Shown: one piece after another, positions 593-64,000 of the stretch
Layout: each line of letters begins with the position of its first letter
Position numbering within the stretch: the stretch's first letter is position 1
Source of the DNA: Escherichia coli
GTDB lineage: Bacteria > Pseudomonadota > Gammaproteobacteria > Enterobacterales > Enterobacteriaceae
Length of the DNA stretch: 64,000 nucleotides
Strand: one strand, 5' to 3'
Assembly (NCBI RefSeq): GCF_024502345.1
Contig: NZ_JALDNN010000001.1
Translations under genes and position numbers: made by a program
The notes under the pieces: generated by a model
What the model was told of the DNA's origin: nothing
The model's database searches: none
The model's input: only the letters and a program-made list of their open reading frames with translations

Positions 593-2094
593 ATGGATAA
601 CGTTGAACTTTCACCCGCAACACGCTGGGGGATGATTGCTACCGGATTACTTCAGGGTCTGGTTTGCTACCTGCTGATCGTCTGGCTTTCCGGAAAAAAT
701 CACAGTTGGATTGTTTATGGCGTGCCTGCGACCGTTGCGTTTTCATCCGTTTTACTCTTCTCCGTGATCTCTTTTAAACAGAAGCGCCTTTGGGGATGGC
801 TGGCGCTGGTGTTTATTGCCACGCTGGGGATGAGTGGCTGGTGCTTTTACTGTGGGGCGAGTTGTTTAAACTTGTTGGCATCACGTTTTTCAAAACGCTC
901 TTTTTTGCAACCGACTGGTTTATTTATCTCACGTTAGGTCTGGTTACCGCGCTGGCGGTGATCCTCGCGCGAACACAGTCACGTTTAATCGACTCTATTC
1001 AAAAGTTGTTCACGTTAATCGCCACGGGGTTGCTGCCGTTAGTCTCATTGCTAACCCTGATGTTTATCATCACCCTGCCGTTTACGGGCCTGAGCGCGAT
1101 TTCTCGCCACATCTCCGCCGCCGGGTTGCTGTTGACGCTGGCCTTTTTGCAATTGATCTTAATGGCTATTGTCCGCGATCCGCAAAAAGCGTCTCTTCCC
1201 TGGACGGGGCCGTTGCGTTGCCTGATTAAAACCGCTTTGCTGGTTGCTCCGCTGTATGTGTTCGTCGCCGCCTGGGCGTTATGGCTGCGGGTCGCTCAGT
1301 ACGGCTGGACTGTCGACCGCTTGCAGGGCGCGCTGGCGGTGCTGGTGTTACTGGTGTGGTCGCTGGGGTATTTTGTCAGCATTGTCTGGCGTAAAGGGCA
1401 AAATCCCCTTGTTCTTCAAGGCAAAGTGAACCTTGCGGTTTCGGTATTGGTGTTGGTGATACTGGTGCTTCTTAATTCGCCGGTGCTGGACAGTATGCGC
1501 ATTAGCGTGAACAGTCATATGGCGCGTTATCAGAGCGGTAAAAACACGCCAGACCAGGTAACTATCTACATGCTCGAACACAGCGGTCGCTATGGACGTG
1601 CGGCGCTTGAGTCGCTGAAAAGCGATGCCGAGTTTATGAAAGACCCGAAACGCTCGTGGGATCTGCTGATGGCGTTAGATGGGGAGCAAAGTCTTCAGAA
1701 GGTGGTGTCGGAAAAATCATTAGCCGAAAATGTGTTAATTGCCCCTGGTTCTGGTAAACCGGATGCGACATTCTGGTCGGCCTTAATCCAGGATCGCTAT
1801 AACGTGATGACCTGTATTGAAAAAGACGCCTGCGTACTGGTCGAGCAAGATCTGAATAGTGATGGCAGGGCAGAGCGGATCCTCTTTGCCTTTGATGATG
1901 AAAGATACATTGTCTATGGCTTTGATCCTGACAAGAAAGAATGGCAAGAGCTTACGATGAGTTTACTTCCGCGTGATATAACGAAAGAAAAATTACTCAC
2001 AGCTGCGAAGGATGGAAAACTGGGAACGAAGCCTAAAGCGTGGCGCGATCTTGTAGTGGATGGTGAAAGGCTGGGTGTGAATCTGAATGAGTGA
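593..2094 (+). pseudogene. yhgE: YhgE-like inner-membrane protein gene with interrupted reading frame (593..937 in one frame, 790..2094 in the next)
   Basis: Two consecutive overlapping ORFs, both hydrophobic and membrane-like; first frame opens at ATG 593 after TGA at 575 and stops at TAG 935-937; second frame is closed by TAA 775-777 and runs to TGA 2092-2094. Confidence 0.6.
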
Positions 2095-20174: not shown

Positions 20175-20189
20175 TATCAAAACGCTCGG

Positions 20190-20232
20190 ACGGTCCCCTC
20201 GCCCCTTTGGGGAGAGGGTTAGGGTGAGGGGA
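20190..20232. repeat. GC-rich hairpin repeat, copy 1 (resembles E. coli boxC-class intergenic repeats)
   Basis: ACGGTCCCCTCGCCCCTTTGGGGAGAGGGTTAGGGTGAGGGGA; identical 43-mer recurs at 27897..27939. Confidence 0.8.
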
Positions 20233-20301
20233 GCAGGGAAGCGCCAGTGGGAATTACCCTTTGCTCGCATTGTCGAATAAATCACTTCGTCATCACTCTG
20301 A

Positions 20302-33594: not shown

Positions 33595-34968
33595 TTAATG
33601 GTTGGAGAACCAGTTCAGTTTATCGCGCAGGCCAACAACCCGACCAATAATAATTAGCGATGGACTGTTCATTTGCTGAGCAAGTTCACCGAGTTGCGTG
33701 AGCGTACCGTCAATCACGCGCTGCGTGACTGCCGTTCCGTTTTCGACAATTGCCACCGGCATTTCGCCAGGCATACCGTGTTCAATCAGCTTTTGCTGAA
33801 TAGTCGCGGCCTGATTCAACCCCATATAGAACACCAGCGTCTGTTTTTCTGCCGCCAGGTTTTCCCAGTCCAGCTCGCCACCGGTTTTTAAGTGTCCGGT
33901 AATTAAGCGTACGCTCTGGGCATAATCGCGATGCGTGAGTGGAATACCCGAATAGGCAGAGCAACCAGAAGCTGCGGTAATACCCGGAACCACCGAGAAC
34001 GGAATACCCGCGTTGCACAGTGTTTCCAGCTCTTCGCCACCACGGCCAAAAATAAACGGATCGCCACCTTTCAGCCGCACCACGCGTTTGCCTTTTTGCG
34101 CTTCCCGCAGCAGGATCTGGTTAATCTCTTCCTGCGGTACACAGTGGTATCCCGCGCGTTTGCCGACGAAAACGCGATCAGCATCGCGGCGTACCAGATT
34201 CATAATATCGTCAGAAACCAGACGGTCGTAGACCACCACATCTGCCTGCTGAATTTGTTGCAGTCCTTTCAGCGTCAGCAGCCCGGCATCGCCCGGACCT
34301 GCACCAACCAGCACCACTTCACCGCGATGGTCGAGCGGTTCGTTGATTAACTGTTCGGTCGTTTCAGTAATGGCTTTCTGATCGTTGTTTGCCAGCGACT
34401 GCGCCAGGCGGTCGTTAACGAACAATTTCTCCCAGAAACGGCGACGCTCACTCATCGTGGCGAACTGTTGTTTCACTCGCCCGCGTAATTGCCCGGCATA
34501 TTTCGCCACCTGGCCCAGATGCAACGGCAGCAGTGATTCGAGTTTTTCGCGCAACAGGCGCGCCAGAACCGGAGAGGTGCCGCCAGAGGAGACCGCTACC
34601 ATTAGCGGTGAGCGGTCAATAATCGACGGCATAATAAAGCTGGCGGCTTTCGGCGCATCGACTACGTTACAGAAGATGCGACGAGCTTCAGCGGCTTCGC
34701 TGACGCGCTGGTTAAGCGTGTCATCATCCGTCGCTGCAATCGCCAGCCAGCAGGTGTCGAGAAGGCTTTCATCAAATGGCCCTTCGACGAGGGTTAACAT
34801 GCCTGCATCTGCCCATGCGGTGAACTGTGGAATAAACGCTAATGCATTCACCGTTAAGCGAGCGCCTGCGTCTAACAGCAACCTTGCTTTGCGTTCCGCG
34901 ACATCACCACCGCCGACAATCAGACAGTCGCGATCGCGTAATTGGCAAAATATAGGCAAATGATCCAC
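33595..34968 (-). CDS. cysG: Siroheme synthase (uroporphyrinogen-III methyltransferase / precorrin-2 dehydrogenase / ferrochelatase)
   Basis: 457-aa [34 protein letters not shown]...; SAM methyltransferase motif [15 protein letters not shown]. Confidence 0.95.
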
Positions 34969-34986: not shown

Positions 34987-35793
34987 TTAACCGGCAGCCG
35001 TTTCAGTTTGATTAAATTTGTCCGCAACCGGACGATTCGCTTTCGGCGTAGCATACCAATAACCCAATCCCATGAATACGGCACCCGATAAAGTATTACC
35101 CAGCGTCACCCACAGCAGGTTATGACCAATACCCGCCAGCGTGTAGGCTTCGCTGTGGTTGCCGAACCAGGAGAGGGCGAACAGCGTCATGTTAGCGATG
35201 GAGTGCTCGTAGCCGGACGCGATAAATGCCAGCAGACACCACCAGATAGCGATAAATTTCGCCGCCCCTTCAGTGCGCAGCGCCATCCAGATTGCCAGGC
35301 AAACCAGCCAGTTACACAATGCACCTTTGAAGAAGAGTACCATTGCCGGTGCAGTGGTTTTAGCCAGCGCGACGGAGTGAACGATGCTGGTATCTACCGG
35401 CAGCAGGCTACCGCCGCCCCAGCTATAAAGCATGGCAACGAAGACGGAACCGACCAGGTTACCCAGCCAGGTTTGCGGCAGGATTGCCCACATTTGCCCG
35501 TGGCTGATGCTGCCCGCTTTTACCCCAAAGGTGAGGAACATGGTGTGTCCGGTGAACAGTTCAGAACCGGCGATAATCACCAGCGTTAAGGCGATACCAA
35601 AGGTCGCGCCCATCACCAGCGGACGTACGGACGGGTCGAGCAAATTACCGAGCGTGAAAATCAAGATGATCCCAAGACCCACATACGCGCCCGCCATGGC
35701 GGAGCTGACCCAAAAGCCGAGCGGGTTATTTGCCGACAGGCGTGCAATGCGCGCAGCGTTAGCCGCACACTTATTAATAGTGTCTGTAAACAT
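34987..35793 (-). CDS. nirC: Nitrite transporter (formate/nitrite transporter family)
   Basis: 268-aa hydrophobic ORF MFTDTINKCAANAARIARLSANNPLGFW... Confidence 0.94.
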   Translation of the reverse strand: MFTDTINKCAANAARIARLSANNPLGFWVSSAMAGAYVGLGIILIFTLGNLLDPSVRPLVMGATFGIALTLVIIAGSELFTGHTMFLTFGVKAGSISHGQMWAILPQTWLGNLVGSVFVAMLYSWGGGSLLPVDTSIVHSVALAKTTAPAMVLFFKGALCNWLVCLAIWMALRTEGAAKFIAIWWCLLAFIASGYEHSIANMTLFALSWFGNHSEAYTLAGIGHNLLWVTLGNTLSGAVFMGLGYWYATPKANRPVADKFNQTETAAG

Positions 35794-35919: not shown

Positions 35920-36246
35920 TTAACCGCGCAGCTGCACCACGCCGTCTTTCACTCGCGCTTCGTAATGTTTGACGGAAAACTGTTCGTCTTCCATGCACAA
36001 GCCATCACTTAAGCGAAAACGCTGTTTTTTCAGCGGGCTGGCGACCCACAGCTCGCCCTGGTGTTCCGCAATCAGCCCGCGTGATAGCACGCTGGACTCG
36101 AAGAACGGATCAATGTTGCTGATCGCAAACACCTGGTCGCTGTGATACGGGCGGAAAATCGCTACCTGCTCGTCACCTAACAGCGCGCAGACGCCGGTTT
36201 CAGGCAGGATGTCATCGATTTTGCAGATGTCTTTCCACTGGCTCAT
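35920..36246 (-). CDS. nirD: Nitrite reductase (NADH) small subunit
   Basis: 108-aa ORF MSQWKDICKIDDILPETGVCALLGDEQVAIF..., Rieske-like fold lacking the cluster ligands. Confidence 0.94.
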   Translation of the reverse strand: MSQWKDICKIDDILPETGVCALLGDEQVAIFRPYHSDQVFAISNIDPFFESSVLSRGLIAEHQGELWVASPLKKQRFRLSDGLCMEDEQFSVKHYEARVKDGVVQLRG

Positions 36247-38786
36247 GCGTTGTCCTCCACCAGAGTTACCGGGATACGTTCATACGGCGTTGCCGGACGG
36301 TGCTGTTCGCGCTCTGGCACCATCTGTACGTTCGGGTCACGCTTGTCGCTGTTGATGAAGTGTTTGAAGCGAGTCTGCGCGGACGGTGTATTGACCGTTT
36401 CAGTCCACTCACACACTACCGCTTCACGCAGGCGCGCCATCTCTTCTTCCAGATGTGCGTTCAGCCCCAGTTTGTCGTCAATGATCACCGCTTTCAGATA
36501 ATCGATGCCGCCTTCGAGGTTTTCTAACCACGGCGCGGTACGCGTCAGTTTGTCGGCGGTACGGATGTAGAACATCATGAAGCGGTCGAGATATTTGATC
36601 AGCGTTTCGCGATCGATATCCGCTGCCAGCAGATCCGCATGACGCGGTTTCATGCCGCCGTTACCGCAAACATACAGGTTCCAGCCTTTTTCAGTGGCGA
36701 TAATACCCACGTCTTTACCCTGAGCTTCTGAACATTCACGGGTACAGCCGGAGACACCGAACTTCATTTTGTGCGGCGTACGGATGCCTTTGTAGCGGTT
36801 TTCCAGTTCCACGCCGAGGCCGACGCTATCGCCAACACCGTAGCGGCACCAGGTGCTACCCACGCAGGTTTTCGCCATACGCAGTGCTTTCGCATAGGCA
36901 TGACCGGTTTCGAAGCCAGCTTCAATCAGCTGACGCCAGATTTCCGGCAGATCGTCTTTCTGTGCGCCAAACATCGCCAGGCGCTGGGAGCCGGTGATTT
37001 TGGTGTAGAGATTAAATTCACGCGCGATACGACCCACTGCCATCAGCCCTTCCGGGGTGATTTCACCGCCCGGAGAACGCGGGATCACCGAGTAGGTGCC
37101 GTCTTTCTGGATGTTAGCGAGGAAGTTGTCGTTAGAATCCTGCAGCGGAGTATGTTCCGGCTTCAGAATGTATTCGTTCCAGCAGGAGGCCAGCAGCGAA
37201 CCGACGGTTGGTTTACAAACTTCACAACCGTAGCCTTTGCCGTGTTTCGCCAGCAGTTCTTCGAAGGTTTTAATGCCTTCAACGCGGATCAAATGGAACA
37301 GTTCCTGACGCGAATAAGCAAAGTGTTCGCACAGGTTGTTGTTAACTTCGATGCCCTGTTTCGCCAGTTCCGCGTTCAGTACCTGAGTGACCAGCGGGAT
37401 ACAGCCACCGCAGCCAGTACCCGCTTTGGTTTCAGCTTTCAGCGCCGCAACTGTGTGGCAGCCTTTGTTGATGGCAGCAATCAGATCACCTTTGGTGACG
37501 TCGAAGCAGGAGCAGATTTGCGCGCTGTCCGGCAGTTTATCAACACCGATAGACGGCTTGCCGCTACCAGAGTGTGCTGGCAGGATCAGGGAATCCGGGT
37601 TTTCCGGCAGTTCGATAGCGTTCAGCACCAGTTGCAGCAGGTTACCGTAGTCGCTGGTATCGCCCACCAGTACCGCACCGAGCAGGGTTTTGTTGTCTTC
37701 GCTGACAATCAGGCGTTTGTAGATCTCTTTACTTTCGTCGAGGTAAACGTAGCTACGTGCGCCAGGCGTGCGACCGTGCGCATCACCAATACCGCCTACG
37801 TCTACGCCCAGCAGTTTCAGCTTGGCGCTAAGGTCAGCACCTTCAAAGGCGTTTTCGCTACCGAGAATATGGTCAACGGCGACCTGCGCCATTTTGTAGC
37901 CAGGTGCTACCAGACCAAATACACGGTTGTTCCAGCTTGCGCATTCACCGATGGCGTAGATATCCGGATCGGAAGTCTGGCAGGAATCATTAATGACGAT
38001 ACCCCCACGCGGAGCAACGTCCAGACCACACTGGGTTGCCAGCTTATCGCGCGGACGGATACCGGTAGAGAAGACGATAAAGTCGACTTCCAGTTCGCTG
38101 CCGTCGGCAAAACGCATGGTTTTACGCGCTTCGACACCTTCCTGCACAATCTCAAGGGTGTTTTTGCTGGTGTGAACGCGCACGCCCATACTTTCGATTT
38201 TGCGACGCAGCTGCTCGCCACCCATCTGATCAAGCTGTTCCGCCATCAGCATAGGGGCAAATTCGATAACGTGGGTTTCAATACCTAAGTTTTTCAGCGC
38301 GCCAGCGGCTTCCAGACCTAACAGGCCGCCACCAACAACGGCACCGCGTTTGCTGCGACGGGCGCAGGATTCAATGGCGTTGAGGTCTTCAATGGTGCGA
38401 TAGACAAAGCAGTCCTGAGTATCAGAACCTTTGATTGGTGGGATCCACGGGTAGGAACCGGTTGCCATGATCAGCTTGTCATAAAAAACGGTACGTCCGG
38501 CGCTGGAGTGAATCACCTTCTCCTGACGGTTGATGGTGATAGCGCGTTCGCCGACCAGAACTTTGATGCCGTGTTTCTCGTAGAAGCCTTCGCGCACCAG
38601 CGACAGCTCTTCGGCGGTGTGGTGAGAGAAGTAAGACGAGAGGTGTACGCGGTCATAAGCGATGCGCGGTTCTTCACAGAAAACGGTAATATCAAAGTTG
38701 GCCGCATCAGATTTATCAAGAAGATCTTCGATAAAGCGATGGCCGACCATACCGTTACCGATAATTGCGAGTCTGACTTTGCTCAT
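36243..38786 (-). CDS. nirB: Nitrite reductase (NADH) large subunit
   Basis: 847-aa ORF MSKVRLAIIGNGMVGHRFIED...; FAD/NAD Rossmann motifs and siroheme/Fe-S cysteine clusters. Confidence 0.96.
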   Translation of the reverse strand: MSKVRLAIIGNGMVGHRFIEDLLDKSDAANFDITVFCEEPRIAYDRVHLSSYFSHHTAEELSLVREGFYEKHGIKVLVGERAITINRQEKVIHSSAGRTVFYDKLIMATGSYPWIPPIKGSDTQDCFVYRTIEDLNAIESCARRSKRGAVVGGGLLGLEAAGALKNLGIETHVIEFAPMLMAEQLDQMGGEQLRRKIESMGVRVHTSKNTLEIVQEGVEARKTMRFADGSELEVDFIVFSTGIRPRDKLATQCGLDVAPRGGIVINDSCQTSDPDIYAIGECASWNNRVFGLVAPGYKMAQVAVDHILGSENAFEGADLSAKLKLLGVDVGGIGDAHGRTPGARSYVYLDESKEIYKRLIVSEDNKTLLGAVLVGDTSDYGNLLQLVLNAIELPENPDSLILPAHSGSGKPSIGVDKLPDSAQICSCFDVTKGDLIAAINKGCHTVAALKAETKAGTGCGGCIPLVTQVLNAELAKQGIEVNNNLCEHFAYSRQELFHLIRVEGIKTFEELLAKHGKGYGCEVCKPTVGSLLASCWNEYILKPEHTPLQDSNDNFLANIQKDGTYSVIPRSPGGEITPEGLMAVGRIAREFNLYTKITGSQRLAMFGAQKDDLPEIWRQLIEAGFETGHAYAKALRMAKTCVGSTWCRYGVGDSVGLGVELENRYKGIRTPHKMKFGVSGCTRECSEAQGKDVGIIATEKGWNLYVCGNGGMKPRHADLLAADIDRETLIKYLDRFMMFYIRTADKLTRTAPWLENLEGGIDYLKAVIIDDKLGLNAHLEEEMARLREAVVCEWTETVNTPSAQTRFKHFINSDKRDPNVQMVPEREQHRPATPYERIPVTLVEDNA

Positions 38787-38844
38787 TTTTGCCTCGATTT
38801 CTTTTCTATTACCGCCTACCTTAACGATTCAGCAACCCCGCTTA

Positions 38845-38858
38845 TTGATGTAAATCAA
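38845..38858 (-). promoter_or_regulatory. FNR binding site of the nirB promoter
   Basis: TTGAT-gtaa-ATCAA matches FNR consensus TTGAT-N4-ATCAA; centre lies about 65 bp upstream of the nirB ATG, as expected for a class II FNR promoter. Confidence 0.75.
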
Positions 38859-38871
38859 ATTCACCTTTATA

Positions 38872-38887
38872 TACTCCTTAAGGGGTA
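38872..38887 (-). promoter_or_regulatory. NarL/NarP 7-2-7 heptamer pair upstream of the nirB FNR site
   Basis: TACCCCT-ta-AGGAGTA (reverse strand) inverted heptamers. Confidence 0.6.
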
Positions 38888-39047
38888 TATTGCTGATTTG
38901 TATAAATTTTCTTAAGTCACGGAATTGTCTGACATTTCATGTTTGTGCAAAAAATGGACATAATGAACGGGTTTATAGAAATAGATGCACGTAGCGGGGG
39001 AAGAGAGGAAAAGGCCGGACGACGATAGTGCCGTCCGGCATTAGCAA

Positions 39048-40229
39048 TTAATGAGAGGTCAGGGTGTTATGCTGACGGTGACGGCTGACGAAACCTAACA
39101 GGAAGCACATCACAAAGACGACAGCGTACAGACCGTTTGCTGTAAGCAGTGCCGCCTGCGGACCGCTATGTTCAACAATCGGGCCGGTAACCACAAAGGT
39201 CAACATAGTACCGATGGTTCCGCAGGTCAGGACAAAGTTAACCAGTTTTGGCGACGGTACTTTGGTCTGCTGTGAACCCAGGGTGATGATGGTGGTATAG
39301 ATCGCGCTGGAGAAGAAGCCCAGAGCGAGAATTGACCACGCCATATGTGCTGGTGTTCCGGTGTTAAAGACGTACATCAGAATCGCAGCCAGACCAGCCA
39401 GTACGGTCAGAATGCGTTGCAAATCAAAGAAGCGAAGAATAAAGCTGAACGCCCACATGCCGACCATGTATGACATCCAGAAGTTACTCACCAGCGTGCC
39501 CGCGTCGTTCAGGCTCATGCCCAGGCCTTTGGCATACTCAGGCACCCAGGAGATAAAACCTAACTGACCGAGGATGTAGCACAGCGCCGCAACAGAGAGA
39601 AACAGTACGCCGATCCCCCACTTTTCTTTCTCTACCGGAGCATCCGTTTTTGGTGCATGTTTGCCCAGTGCCGGGAACTCACAGCCGAAGGTCAGAATAA
39701 AAATAGCGACATACACCAGCCCGATGCAGGCATAAACCCAGTACCACTCAATGCTGCGCGCCAGTAGAAACGCGGCGATCATTGGGAAAATCATCCCAGC
39801 CATACTGAAGAAGGAGTCAGTAAATAACAGGCGGGAACCGCGCTGACGCCCTTCATACATTTGTGTTATCAGGAATGTACCAATCGACATAGTAATGCCG
39901 CTGACCACCCCGAGAATGAACATCGCCGTCGAGAACAGCGCCAGGCTGTGGCTGAACATCAAACCGGCAACCGCCAGCACCATCAGGAGAAAGCCAAAAC
40001 GTAACTGCGTTTTCAACGGGACGATTTCCATCAGCCAGGCGTTGAGGAAGATAGAGATTAAAATGCCGGCGTTGAGGAAGGTGAAGGTGTTACTCATACT
40101 GGAAACAGGCAGATTGAAATAATCGGCGATATTTCCCATCACCATCCCGGTGACAATAACCAACGCACCAGTCAGTGCGTAGGAGAGAAAGCTAATCCAT
40201 GTGAGCTTGATGCGATTGCTGTTAGTCAT
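39048..40229 (-). CDS. tsgA: MFS-family membrane protein TsgA
   Basis: 393-aa hydrophobic [31 protein letters not shown]... Confidence 0.92.
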
Positions 40230-62703: not shown

Positions 62704-62779
62704 CTGCCCGTAATTTGAGCTCGAAATATTTAGTCGTAATTTTGCTCGCTGAACTATGGCGCAAATAAAACTGTGCTAT

Positions 62780-62798
62780 TGTAATCATAACTATTCTC
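62780..62798 (+). promoter_or_regulatory. Possible Fur box in the bfd promoter region
   Basis: TGTAATCATAACTATTCTC matches about 13 of 19 positions of GATAATGATAATCATTATC; about 40 bp upstream of bfd. Confidence 0.35.
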
Positions 62799-62834
62799 AT
62801 TTACACTTTGCGCAGAATTTGAACGGGAGCAATC

Positions 62835-63029
62835 ATGTACGTTTGTTTGTGTAATGGTGTAAGTGACAAAAAAATTCGCCAGGCAGTCCGTCAGTTTCAT
62901 CCGCAATCTTTCCAACAATTGCGTAAGTTTATTCCTGTGGGAAATCAATGTGGTAAGTGCATTCGCGCCGCGCGCGAAGTGATGCAGGACGAGTTGATGC
63001 AGATGCCAGAATTTAAAGAGATTGCTTGA
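62835..63029 (+). CDS. bfd: Bacterioferritin-associated ferredoxin
   Basis: 64-aa ORF MYVCLCNGVSDKKIRQAVRQ... with CxC...CxxC [2Fe-2S] ligands. Confidence 0.95.
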   Translation: MYVCLCNGVSDKKIRQAVRQFHPQSFQQLRKFIPVGNQCGKCIRAAREVMQDELMQMPEFKEIA

Positions 63030-63101
63030 AGCCCACGCTTATTTTTTGACAACCAGCTAGCCCCATCTACGCTCTAATAGTGGAAGCGGAGGGACTATAA
63101 A

Positions 63102-63578
63102 ATGAAAGGTGATGTTAAAATCATAAATTATCTCAATAAACTATTGGGAAATGAGCTTGTCGCAATCAATCAGTATTTTCTCCATGCCCGGATGTTTAAA
63201 AACTGGGGGCTGATGCGTCTCAATGACGTTGAATACCATGAATCCATCGATGAGATGAAACACGCTGATAAGTATATCGAGCGTATTTTGTTTTTAGAAG
63301 GAGTCCCCAACTTACAGGATTTAGGCAAACTGGGGATTGGTGAAGATGTCGAAGAGATGCTGCAATCCGACCTGCGATTAGAGCTGGAAGGCGCGAAGGA
63401 TCTGCGTGAGGCTATCGCATATGCCGACAGCGTTCATGACTATGTTAGCCGCGATATGATGATCGAGATCCTTGCTGATGAAGAAGGTCATATCGACTGG
63501 CTCGAAACTGAACTGGATCTCATCGGTAAAATCGGCCTACAAAATTACCTGCAATCACAAATTAAAGTTAAAGATTAA
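63102..63578 (+). CDS. bfr: Bacterioferritin
   Basis: 158-aa [40 protein letters not shown]... Confidence 0.97.
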
Positions 63579-64000
63579 CGGCCTATCAGCAAACTATCCC
63601 AGCCTATAACGAAACCCGCAGCCGCCAGAAATGGCCCAAAGGGCAGCGGGTTTTTTAATGATTCTTTTCCTCTCATGAGCAGACCAATAACTACGGCTCC
63701 GCAAGCGAATGAGGCAGCAAGGAAAACCAGTCGTGGTAAGAAGGCCCATGAATGCCAGGCGCCAAGGGCGGCGAGAAACTTCACATCACCATAGCCTAAT
63801 CCTTCTTTATGGCGCAGTATACGATACCCCCAGTAAATGACAGCGAATGTGCCGTAACCAACAATTGCCCCCCATAACGCATCGGCTAAACCATCAGGAT
63901 GACAAACTTGATAGAACAAAAGACCTGACCAGAGTAACGGGCACGTAAATCTGTCAGGTAACAAGCCATGCTTTGCATCCCAGAAAAAAAGTAGGGCTGA
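63575..64000 (-). CDS. hofD: Prepilin-peptidase-like leader peptidase HofD/HopD, 3' part; start lies beyond the window end
   Basis: Reverse-strand frame open to the window edge; hydrophobic ...[30 protein letters not shown]...[17 protein letters not shown]..., typical of A24 prepilin peptidases. Confidence 0.8.

Follow-up and report, generated by a model that had tools for sequence, protein, structure and literature searches.

The 64-kb window (the whole stretch of DNA analysed here) almost certainly contains, between tsgA and nirB, the native nirBDC-cysG promoter (pnir, also nirBp) of a chromosome of E. coli type; the promoter lies on the minus strand. This nir promoter is a known and ordinary one and can validly serve as an internal control. 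The direction of reading follows from the genes: nirB is a minus-strand ORF with nirD, nirC and cysG downstream and tsgA upstream of it, and the site sits between tsgA and nirB, where it drives nirBDC-cysG. The nirB, nirD, nirC and cysG ORFs are intact and have the same lengths as their K-12 counterparts (Table 1). The genes fnr, narL and narP are located outside the window.

K-12 MG1655 is the strain in which the nir promoter was characterised, and its pnir (nirBp) has been the subject of work in the Busby, Cole and Browning laboratories. As the characterised reference we used the tsgA-nirB genomic region of K-12 MG1655, which was aligned to the window, together with secondary citations.

Elements and spacing of the promoter

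The FNR box, a perfect TTGAT-N4-ATCAA inverted repeat at 38845..38858, reads TTGATGTAAATCAA on the plus strand and TTGATTTACATCAA on the gene strand, and is the one match to the pattern TTGATNNNNATCAA in the 64-kb window, versus 0.08 expected. In a table of FNR-regulated operons, FNR is placed at -41.5 for nirBDC-cysG (PMC3688515). With the centre of the box (38851.5) set at this published position, the transcription start, which is thereby computed and not mapped, is the A at 38810. On this numbering the centre of the NarL/NarP 7-2-7 site (38879.5) comes to lie at -69.5, exactly as published, and 28 bp centre-to-centre from the FNR site. This second site, at 38872..38887, reads TACTCCTTAAGGGGTA on the plus strand and TACCCCTTAAGGAGTA on the gene strand; the pattern TACYYMTNNAKRRGTA has this single match in the window versus 0.00 expected. 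NarL bound at -69.5 displaces IHF from -88 and lifts the repression by Fis (PMC10853779). The earlier note had located both sites at these coordinates, with the NarL/NarP site upstream of the FNR box and the latter centred about 41.5 bp upstream of the start, and our analysis agrees with it on each of these points. The letters it gave for the motifs, however, mixed the two strands: the FNR box was written as it stands on the plus strand, and the NarL/NarP site and the -10 element as they stand on the minus strand.

The TAAGGT hexamer that the note had described as -10-like is indeed present, at 38823..38818 on the minus strand. The promoter pairs a weak -10 element with the lack of a -35 consensus; a promoter scanner found no full sigma-70 consensus match in 38600..39200, and none is to be expected, since the promoter is activator-dependent and has no -35 element. 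The FNR site is at the class II position, overlapping the place where a -35 element would lie. PMC9314961 quotes a spacing rule for class II promoters, by which the site of the FNR dimer overlaps the -35 region, some 29 bp upstream of the -10 element. In the window, 28 bases separate the FNR centre from the first T of TAAGGT, so that the hexamer begins at the 29th base, consistent with a class II FNR-activated promoter.

The interval 38787..38900, within which these elements were first noticed, corresponds to +24 to -90. It takes in the core promoter and the IHF I core, and leaves out the Fis and IHF sites further upstream, which reach about -150. An IHF site is known at -88 of the nir promoter (PMC10853779), and the window has at this place a conserved AAATCAG, which contains the WATCAR half of the IHF consensus; the full consensus, WATCARNNNNTTR, has no match in the promoter, and the WATCAR half alone is present, as is likewise the case in K-12. 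For Fis, the window and K-12 were scanned with a simple consensus, GNNYAWWWWWTRNNC, in which 11 positions are specified. The best hits are at -142 (11/11), -97 and +23, and are the same in the window and in K-12. We take these three to be the positions of Fis I, Fis II and Fis III, respectively, and -115 to be that of IHF II; the Fis I, II and III positions of the nir promoter are said to go back to work by Browning et al. in 2000, 2004 and 2008. Since the Fis hits fall on the literature positions -142, -97 and +23, they lend support to the numbering too. The agreement of the IHF I, Fis II, IHF II, Fis I and Fis III sites with those of pnir is one of letters and positions only.

Table 1. Features of the nir promoter region and the adjoining genes. 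Positions are those of the window; promoter numbering is relative to the computed start.
Feature	Position	Strand	Basis or remark
nirB CDS, 847 aa, first gene of nirBDC-cysG	36243..38786	-	ORF list; matched E. coli records annotated nirB
nirD	35920..36246	-	ORF list; 3' of nirB
nirC	34987..35793	-	ORF list; 3' of nirD
cysG	33595..34968	-	ORF list; 3' of nirC
tsgA, upstream neighbour of nirB	39048..40229		ORF list
Inferred 24-nt 5' leader, +1 (38810) to the base before the ATG (38786)	38787..38810	-	Computed from -41.5; identical to K-12
Shine-Dalgarno GAGG	38795..38792	-	In the inferred nirB leader
-10 hexamer TAAGGT, -13 to -8	38818..38823	-	Sequence read on both strands; cross-genus conservation
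FNR site TTGATttacATCAA, perfect inverted repeat, centre -41.5	38845..38858	-	Only match in 64 kb; identical to K-12
NarL/NarP 7-2-7 site TACCCCTtaAGGAGTA, TACCCCT-ta-AGGAGTA on the gene strand, centre -69.5	38872..38887	-	Only match in the window
Conserved AAATCAG, -89 to -83, WATCAR half of the IHF consensus	38893..38899	-	Identical to K-12; published IHF I position
Fis-consensus match, centre -97	38900..38914	-	9/11 specified positions; same score in the window and K-12
Fis-consensus match GTCCATTTTTTGCAC, centre -142	38945..38959	-	11/11 in the window and K-12
Intrinsic-terminator-like hairpin and T-run, 3' of tsgA	39014..39039	-	10-pair stem with 8 G-C, then CTTTTCCTCT

Comparison with K-12 and with other genera

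The window and K-12 have identical letters from -71 onwards, across the start codon and into nirB, and the two also share the FNR site at -41.5, the NarL/NarP site at -69.5, the TAAGGT element, the leader, the flanking genes and the tsgA terminator. Within the 261 nt between tsgA and nirB they differ by six SNPs, at -232, -157, -151, -146, -123 and -72. The last of these is the sole one listed between -122 and +30 and the only difference inside a named element: an A-to-C change in the distal NarL heptamer, which is TACCCAT in K-12 and TACCCCT in the window, both fitting TACYYMT. With the sequence identical from -71 onwards and the -72 change staying within this consensus, the claim of the earlier note that the nirB promoter is intact is supported. 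A 60-mer with the -72 allele of the window is found identically in 3806 of 5422 complete E. coli genomes; here it is K-12 that has the minority allele of E. coli, and the window the majority one. More uniform still is the 79-nt core that runs from the FNR box to the ATG, which 5352 of 5426 E. coli records carry without a difference.

The SNPs at -123, -146 and -151 sit within the regions of IHF II and Fis I or close to them. At -146, T is changed to C at a Y position of the Fis consensus, and the score stays at 11/11. At -151 (38961) the gene strand has A in the window and T in both K-12 and the closest E. coli, FORC_069. The 60-mer around this A has no 100% identical copy among 5426 complete E. 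coli genomes, making the SNP private; it is 2 nt outside the 15-bp Fis-consensus core centred at -142. Outside the chromosomal setting, short fragments (50-112 nt) that are 100% identical to the 5' end of nirB are present on a few plasmids (E. coli records NZ_AP027533.1 and NZ_AP027687.1).

Beyond E. coli, we scanned one genome per species for an FNR box and a NarL 7-2-7 site separated by a gap of 12-14 nt. This returned 115 loci, among which there was no Escherichia or Shigella locus, though both E. coli alleles fit the pattern. In 77 of the 115 the gap is 13 nt and a NirB N-terminus starts 57-59 nt after the FNR box: at 58 nt, as in the window, in 64 loci, at 57 nt in 12 and at 59 nt in one. 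At least four further loci from Erwinia and Pantoea are also linked to nirB, with differing N-termini. About 20 genera are represented among the nirB-linked loci, including Citrobacter, Kluyvera, Buttiauxella, Cedecea, Pantoea, Erwinia, Pectobacterium, Raoultella, Atlantibacter and Franconibacter, as well as Salmonella enterica subsp. arizonae. As the loci were selected by the FNR and NarL motifs, the conservation of these motifs among them is circular, and the independent evidence in this set is confined to the columns outside the pattern and to the distance to nirB. Among 75 distinct nirB promoter sequences, T-13, A-12, G-9 and T-8 (TAnnGT), which are outside the search pattern, are invariant, as are C-16 and G-15; TAA at -34..-32 is conserved at 96-100% and AAATCA at -89..-84, the published IHF I site, at 97-100%. 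The promoters of other Enterobacterales agree with that of the window in the NarL 7-2-7 site, the 13-nt gap, the FNR box, the 57-59 nt to the nirB start, TAnnGT and AAATCA, whereas their spacer and upstream sequences have diverged and the identity of NirB itself is down to ~66-80% in Erwinia and Pantoea. What is conserved as a footprint across genera is thus the -10 hexamer, the IHF I core and the distance to nirB. For Yersinia and Vibrio, an earlier comparative study likewise predicted FNR and NarP sites in front of nirBDC-cysG (PMC1805755, Table 1). A comparable architecture is that of the E. coli nrfA promoter (pnrf), the other nitrite-reductase promoter under FNR and NarL/NarP, which likewise has FNR at -41.5 and a NarL/NarP site upstream, and is modulated by IHF and Fis (PMC5434802); pnrf differs in belonging to another operon (that of the periplasmic NrfA), in its sequence and in lying outside the window.

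The same scan returned a further class of composites, with a 14-nt gap between the NarL 7-2-7 site and the FNR box, in Rheinheimera, Arsukibacterium, Alishewanella and Alkalimonas, where they are not at nirB. These comprise the locus L009 (5401..5444) and about 25 similar ones (L008, L022, L023, L027, L030, L045, L053, L057, L060, L063, L065, L116 and others). In most of these loci the composite is ~58-76 nt upstream of a gene for a ~125-aa DGC-domain protein (PF08859). Its neighbours are nnrS, a ThiF/MoeB-like gene, one for a NorR-like sigma-54 activator, and scdA/ytfE. The 14-nt-gap composite is a candidate for an anaerobic, nitrate- or NO-linked promoter of a protein of unknown function.

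Genomic context and alternative readings

By BLAST the window is collinear with K-12 3533031..3470093 over 62.7 kb at ~98.5% identity, with no insertion relative to K-12 near the promoter. The placement of the promoter between tsgA and a full-length nirB is the same in 5424 of 5426 E. coli genomes. The terminator-like hairpin 3' of tsgA has the same letters in the aligned K-12 sequence, and would insulate the nir promoter from upstream transcription. The suggestion that the region can serve as a native control is therefore well founded in its native flanking genes, its collinearity with K-12 and the lack of insertions near the promoter. Against 5426 complete E. coli genomes, the best identity of the window is only 98.8-99.3% per 21-22 kb; together with the lack of an Escherichia or Shigella locus in the species scan, this leaves room for a source lineage outside the complete-genome set, which may be, for example, Shigella or a divergent E. 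coli. A search with Rfam detected no RNA family at the gathering threshold anywhere in the 64-kb window.

Several differences from K-12 are found elsewhere in the window. In yhgE (plus strand, ORF start ~593) there is a 211-bp deletion at ~831..842, where K-12 3531980..3532190 is missing and 11 bp at the junction are shared by the two BLAST pieces; as 211 bp is not a multiple of 3, yhgE should be frameshifted. The 101-mer across the deletion junction has no one-piece match among the 5426 complete E. coli genomes, and the deletion is private in this sense. An apparent 6-kb indel in the first third of the window was rejected, direct BLAST showing only the 211-bp yhgE deletion. In the trpS-yhfZ intergenic region, ~110 nt (20180..20289) do not align with the 132 nt that K-12 has there. 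The last 1.3 kb, downstream of tufA (62705..64000), are unmatched in the corresponding K-12 region, where chiA lies. Other E. coli genomes cover this part at ~99%, which suggests a junction that varies naturally between strains.

One alternative reading is that of a nir promoter in which natural SNPs (candidates are those at -72, -146, -151 and -123) have tuned its strength or its nitrate response away from those of K-12. In favour of such tuning are the six intergenic differences, the absence of the -151 A in its local 60-mer from all 5426 complete genomes, and the binding of repressing nucleoid proteins to the upstream region (PMC10853779). We nevertheless consider it unlikely: A and C at -72 both fit the heptamer consensus and C is the majority allele, the -146 change leaves the Fis score at its maximum of 11/11, the -151 change is outside the 15-bp Fis core, and everything from -71 downstream is identical to K-12. 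A slightly less probable proposal concerns the private SNP in particular, namely that the T-to-A change at -151 might weaken repression by Fis and IHF or shift the affinity for NarL/NarP, either alone or along with the common alleles at -146, -123 and -72. Were this the case, the lineage would differ from K-12 in its level of NirBD or in its nitrate/nitrite threshold.

That the motifs co-occur by chance, or belong to a decayed and non-functional promoter, is hardly credible. A match to a consensus is admittedly no proof of function, a caveat that is general to such sites; yet both versions are at odds with the expected counts of 0.08 and 0.00 per window, a sequence identical to the characterised K-12 promoter, a position relative to nirB that is kept across about 20 genera, and intact downstream ORFs, and chance was rejected. 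Equally far-fetched is a non-native insertion, be it an engineered pnirB expression cassette or a transferred fragment: a few plasmid records do hold short nirB 5' fragments, but the site is placed between tsgA and a full-length nirB as in nearly all E. coli genomes and nothing is inserted near it, and the engineered cassette was rejected on the collinearity with K-12.

Expected regulation and use as a control

In K-12 the nir promoter is activated by FNR and suppressed by IHF and Fis, with relief of the suppression by phosphorylated NarL or NarP (PMC10853779, PMC3688515, PMC8139620). Because the sequence is the same, we carry this published mechanism over to the native nir promoter of the present strain, in which the binding of the proteins and the regulation are inferred from identity to K-12. 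In the absence of oxygen, dimeric [4Fe-4S] FNR would occupy its perfect TTGAT-N4-ATCAA site at -41.5 and, bound in the class II manner, would recruit and activate RNA polymerase at a promoter whose -10 (TAAGGT) is weak and which lacks a -35 element. Bound upstream, at -88 and -142 respectively, IHF and Fis would suppress this activation by FNR. When nitrate or nitrite is available, phosphorylated NarL or NarP would bind the 7-2-7 site at -69.5 and displace IHF; since the displacement of IHF would lift the repression, full expression would need both anaerobiosis and nitrate or nitrite.

As to mechanism, the analysis reveals nothing new. Its value is solely that of a control: the regulatory region is native, uninterrupted and essentially of the reference sequence, and the window can therefore be read here as an ordinary E. 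coli-type chromosome.
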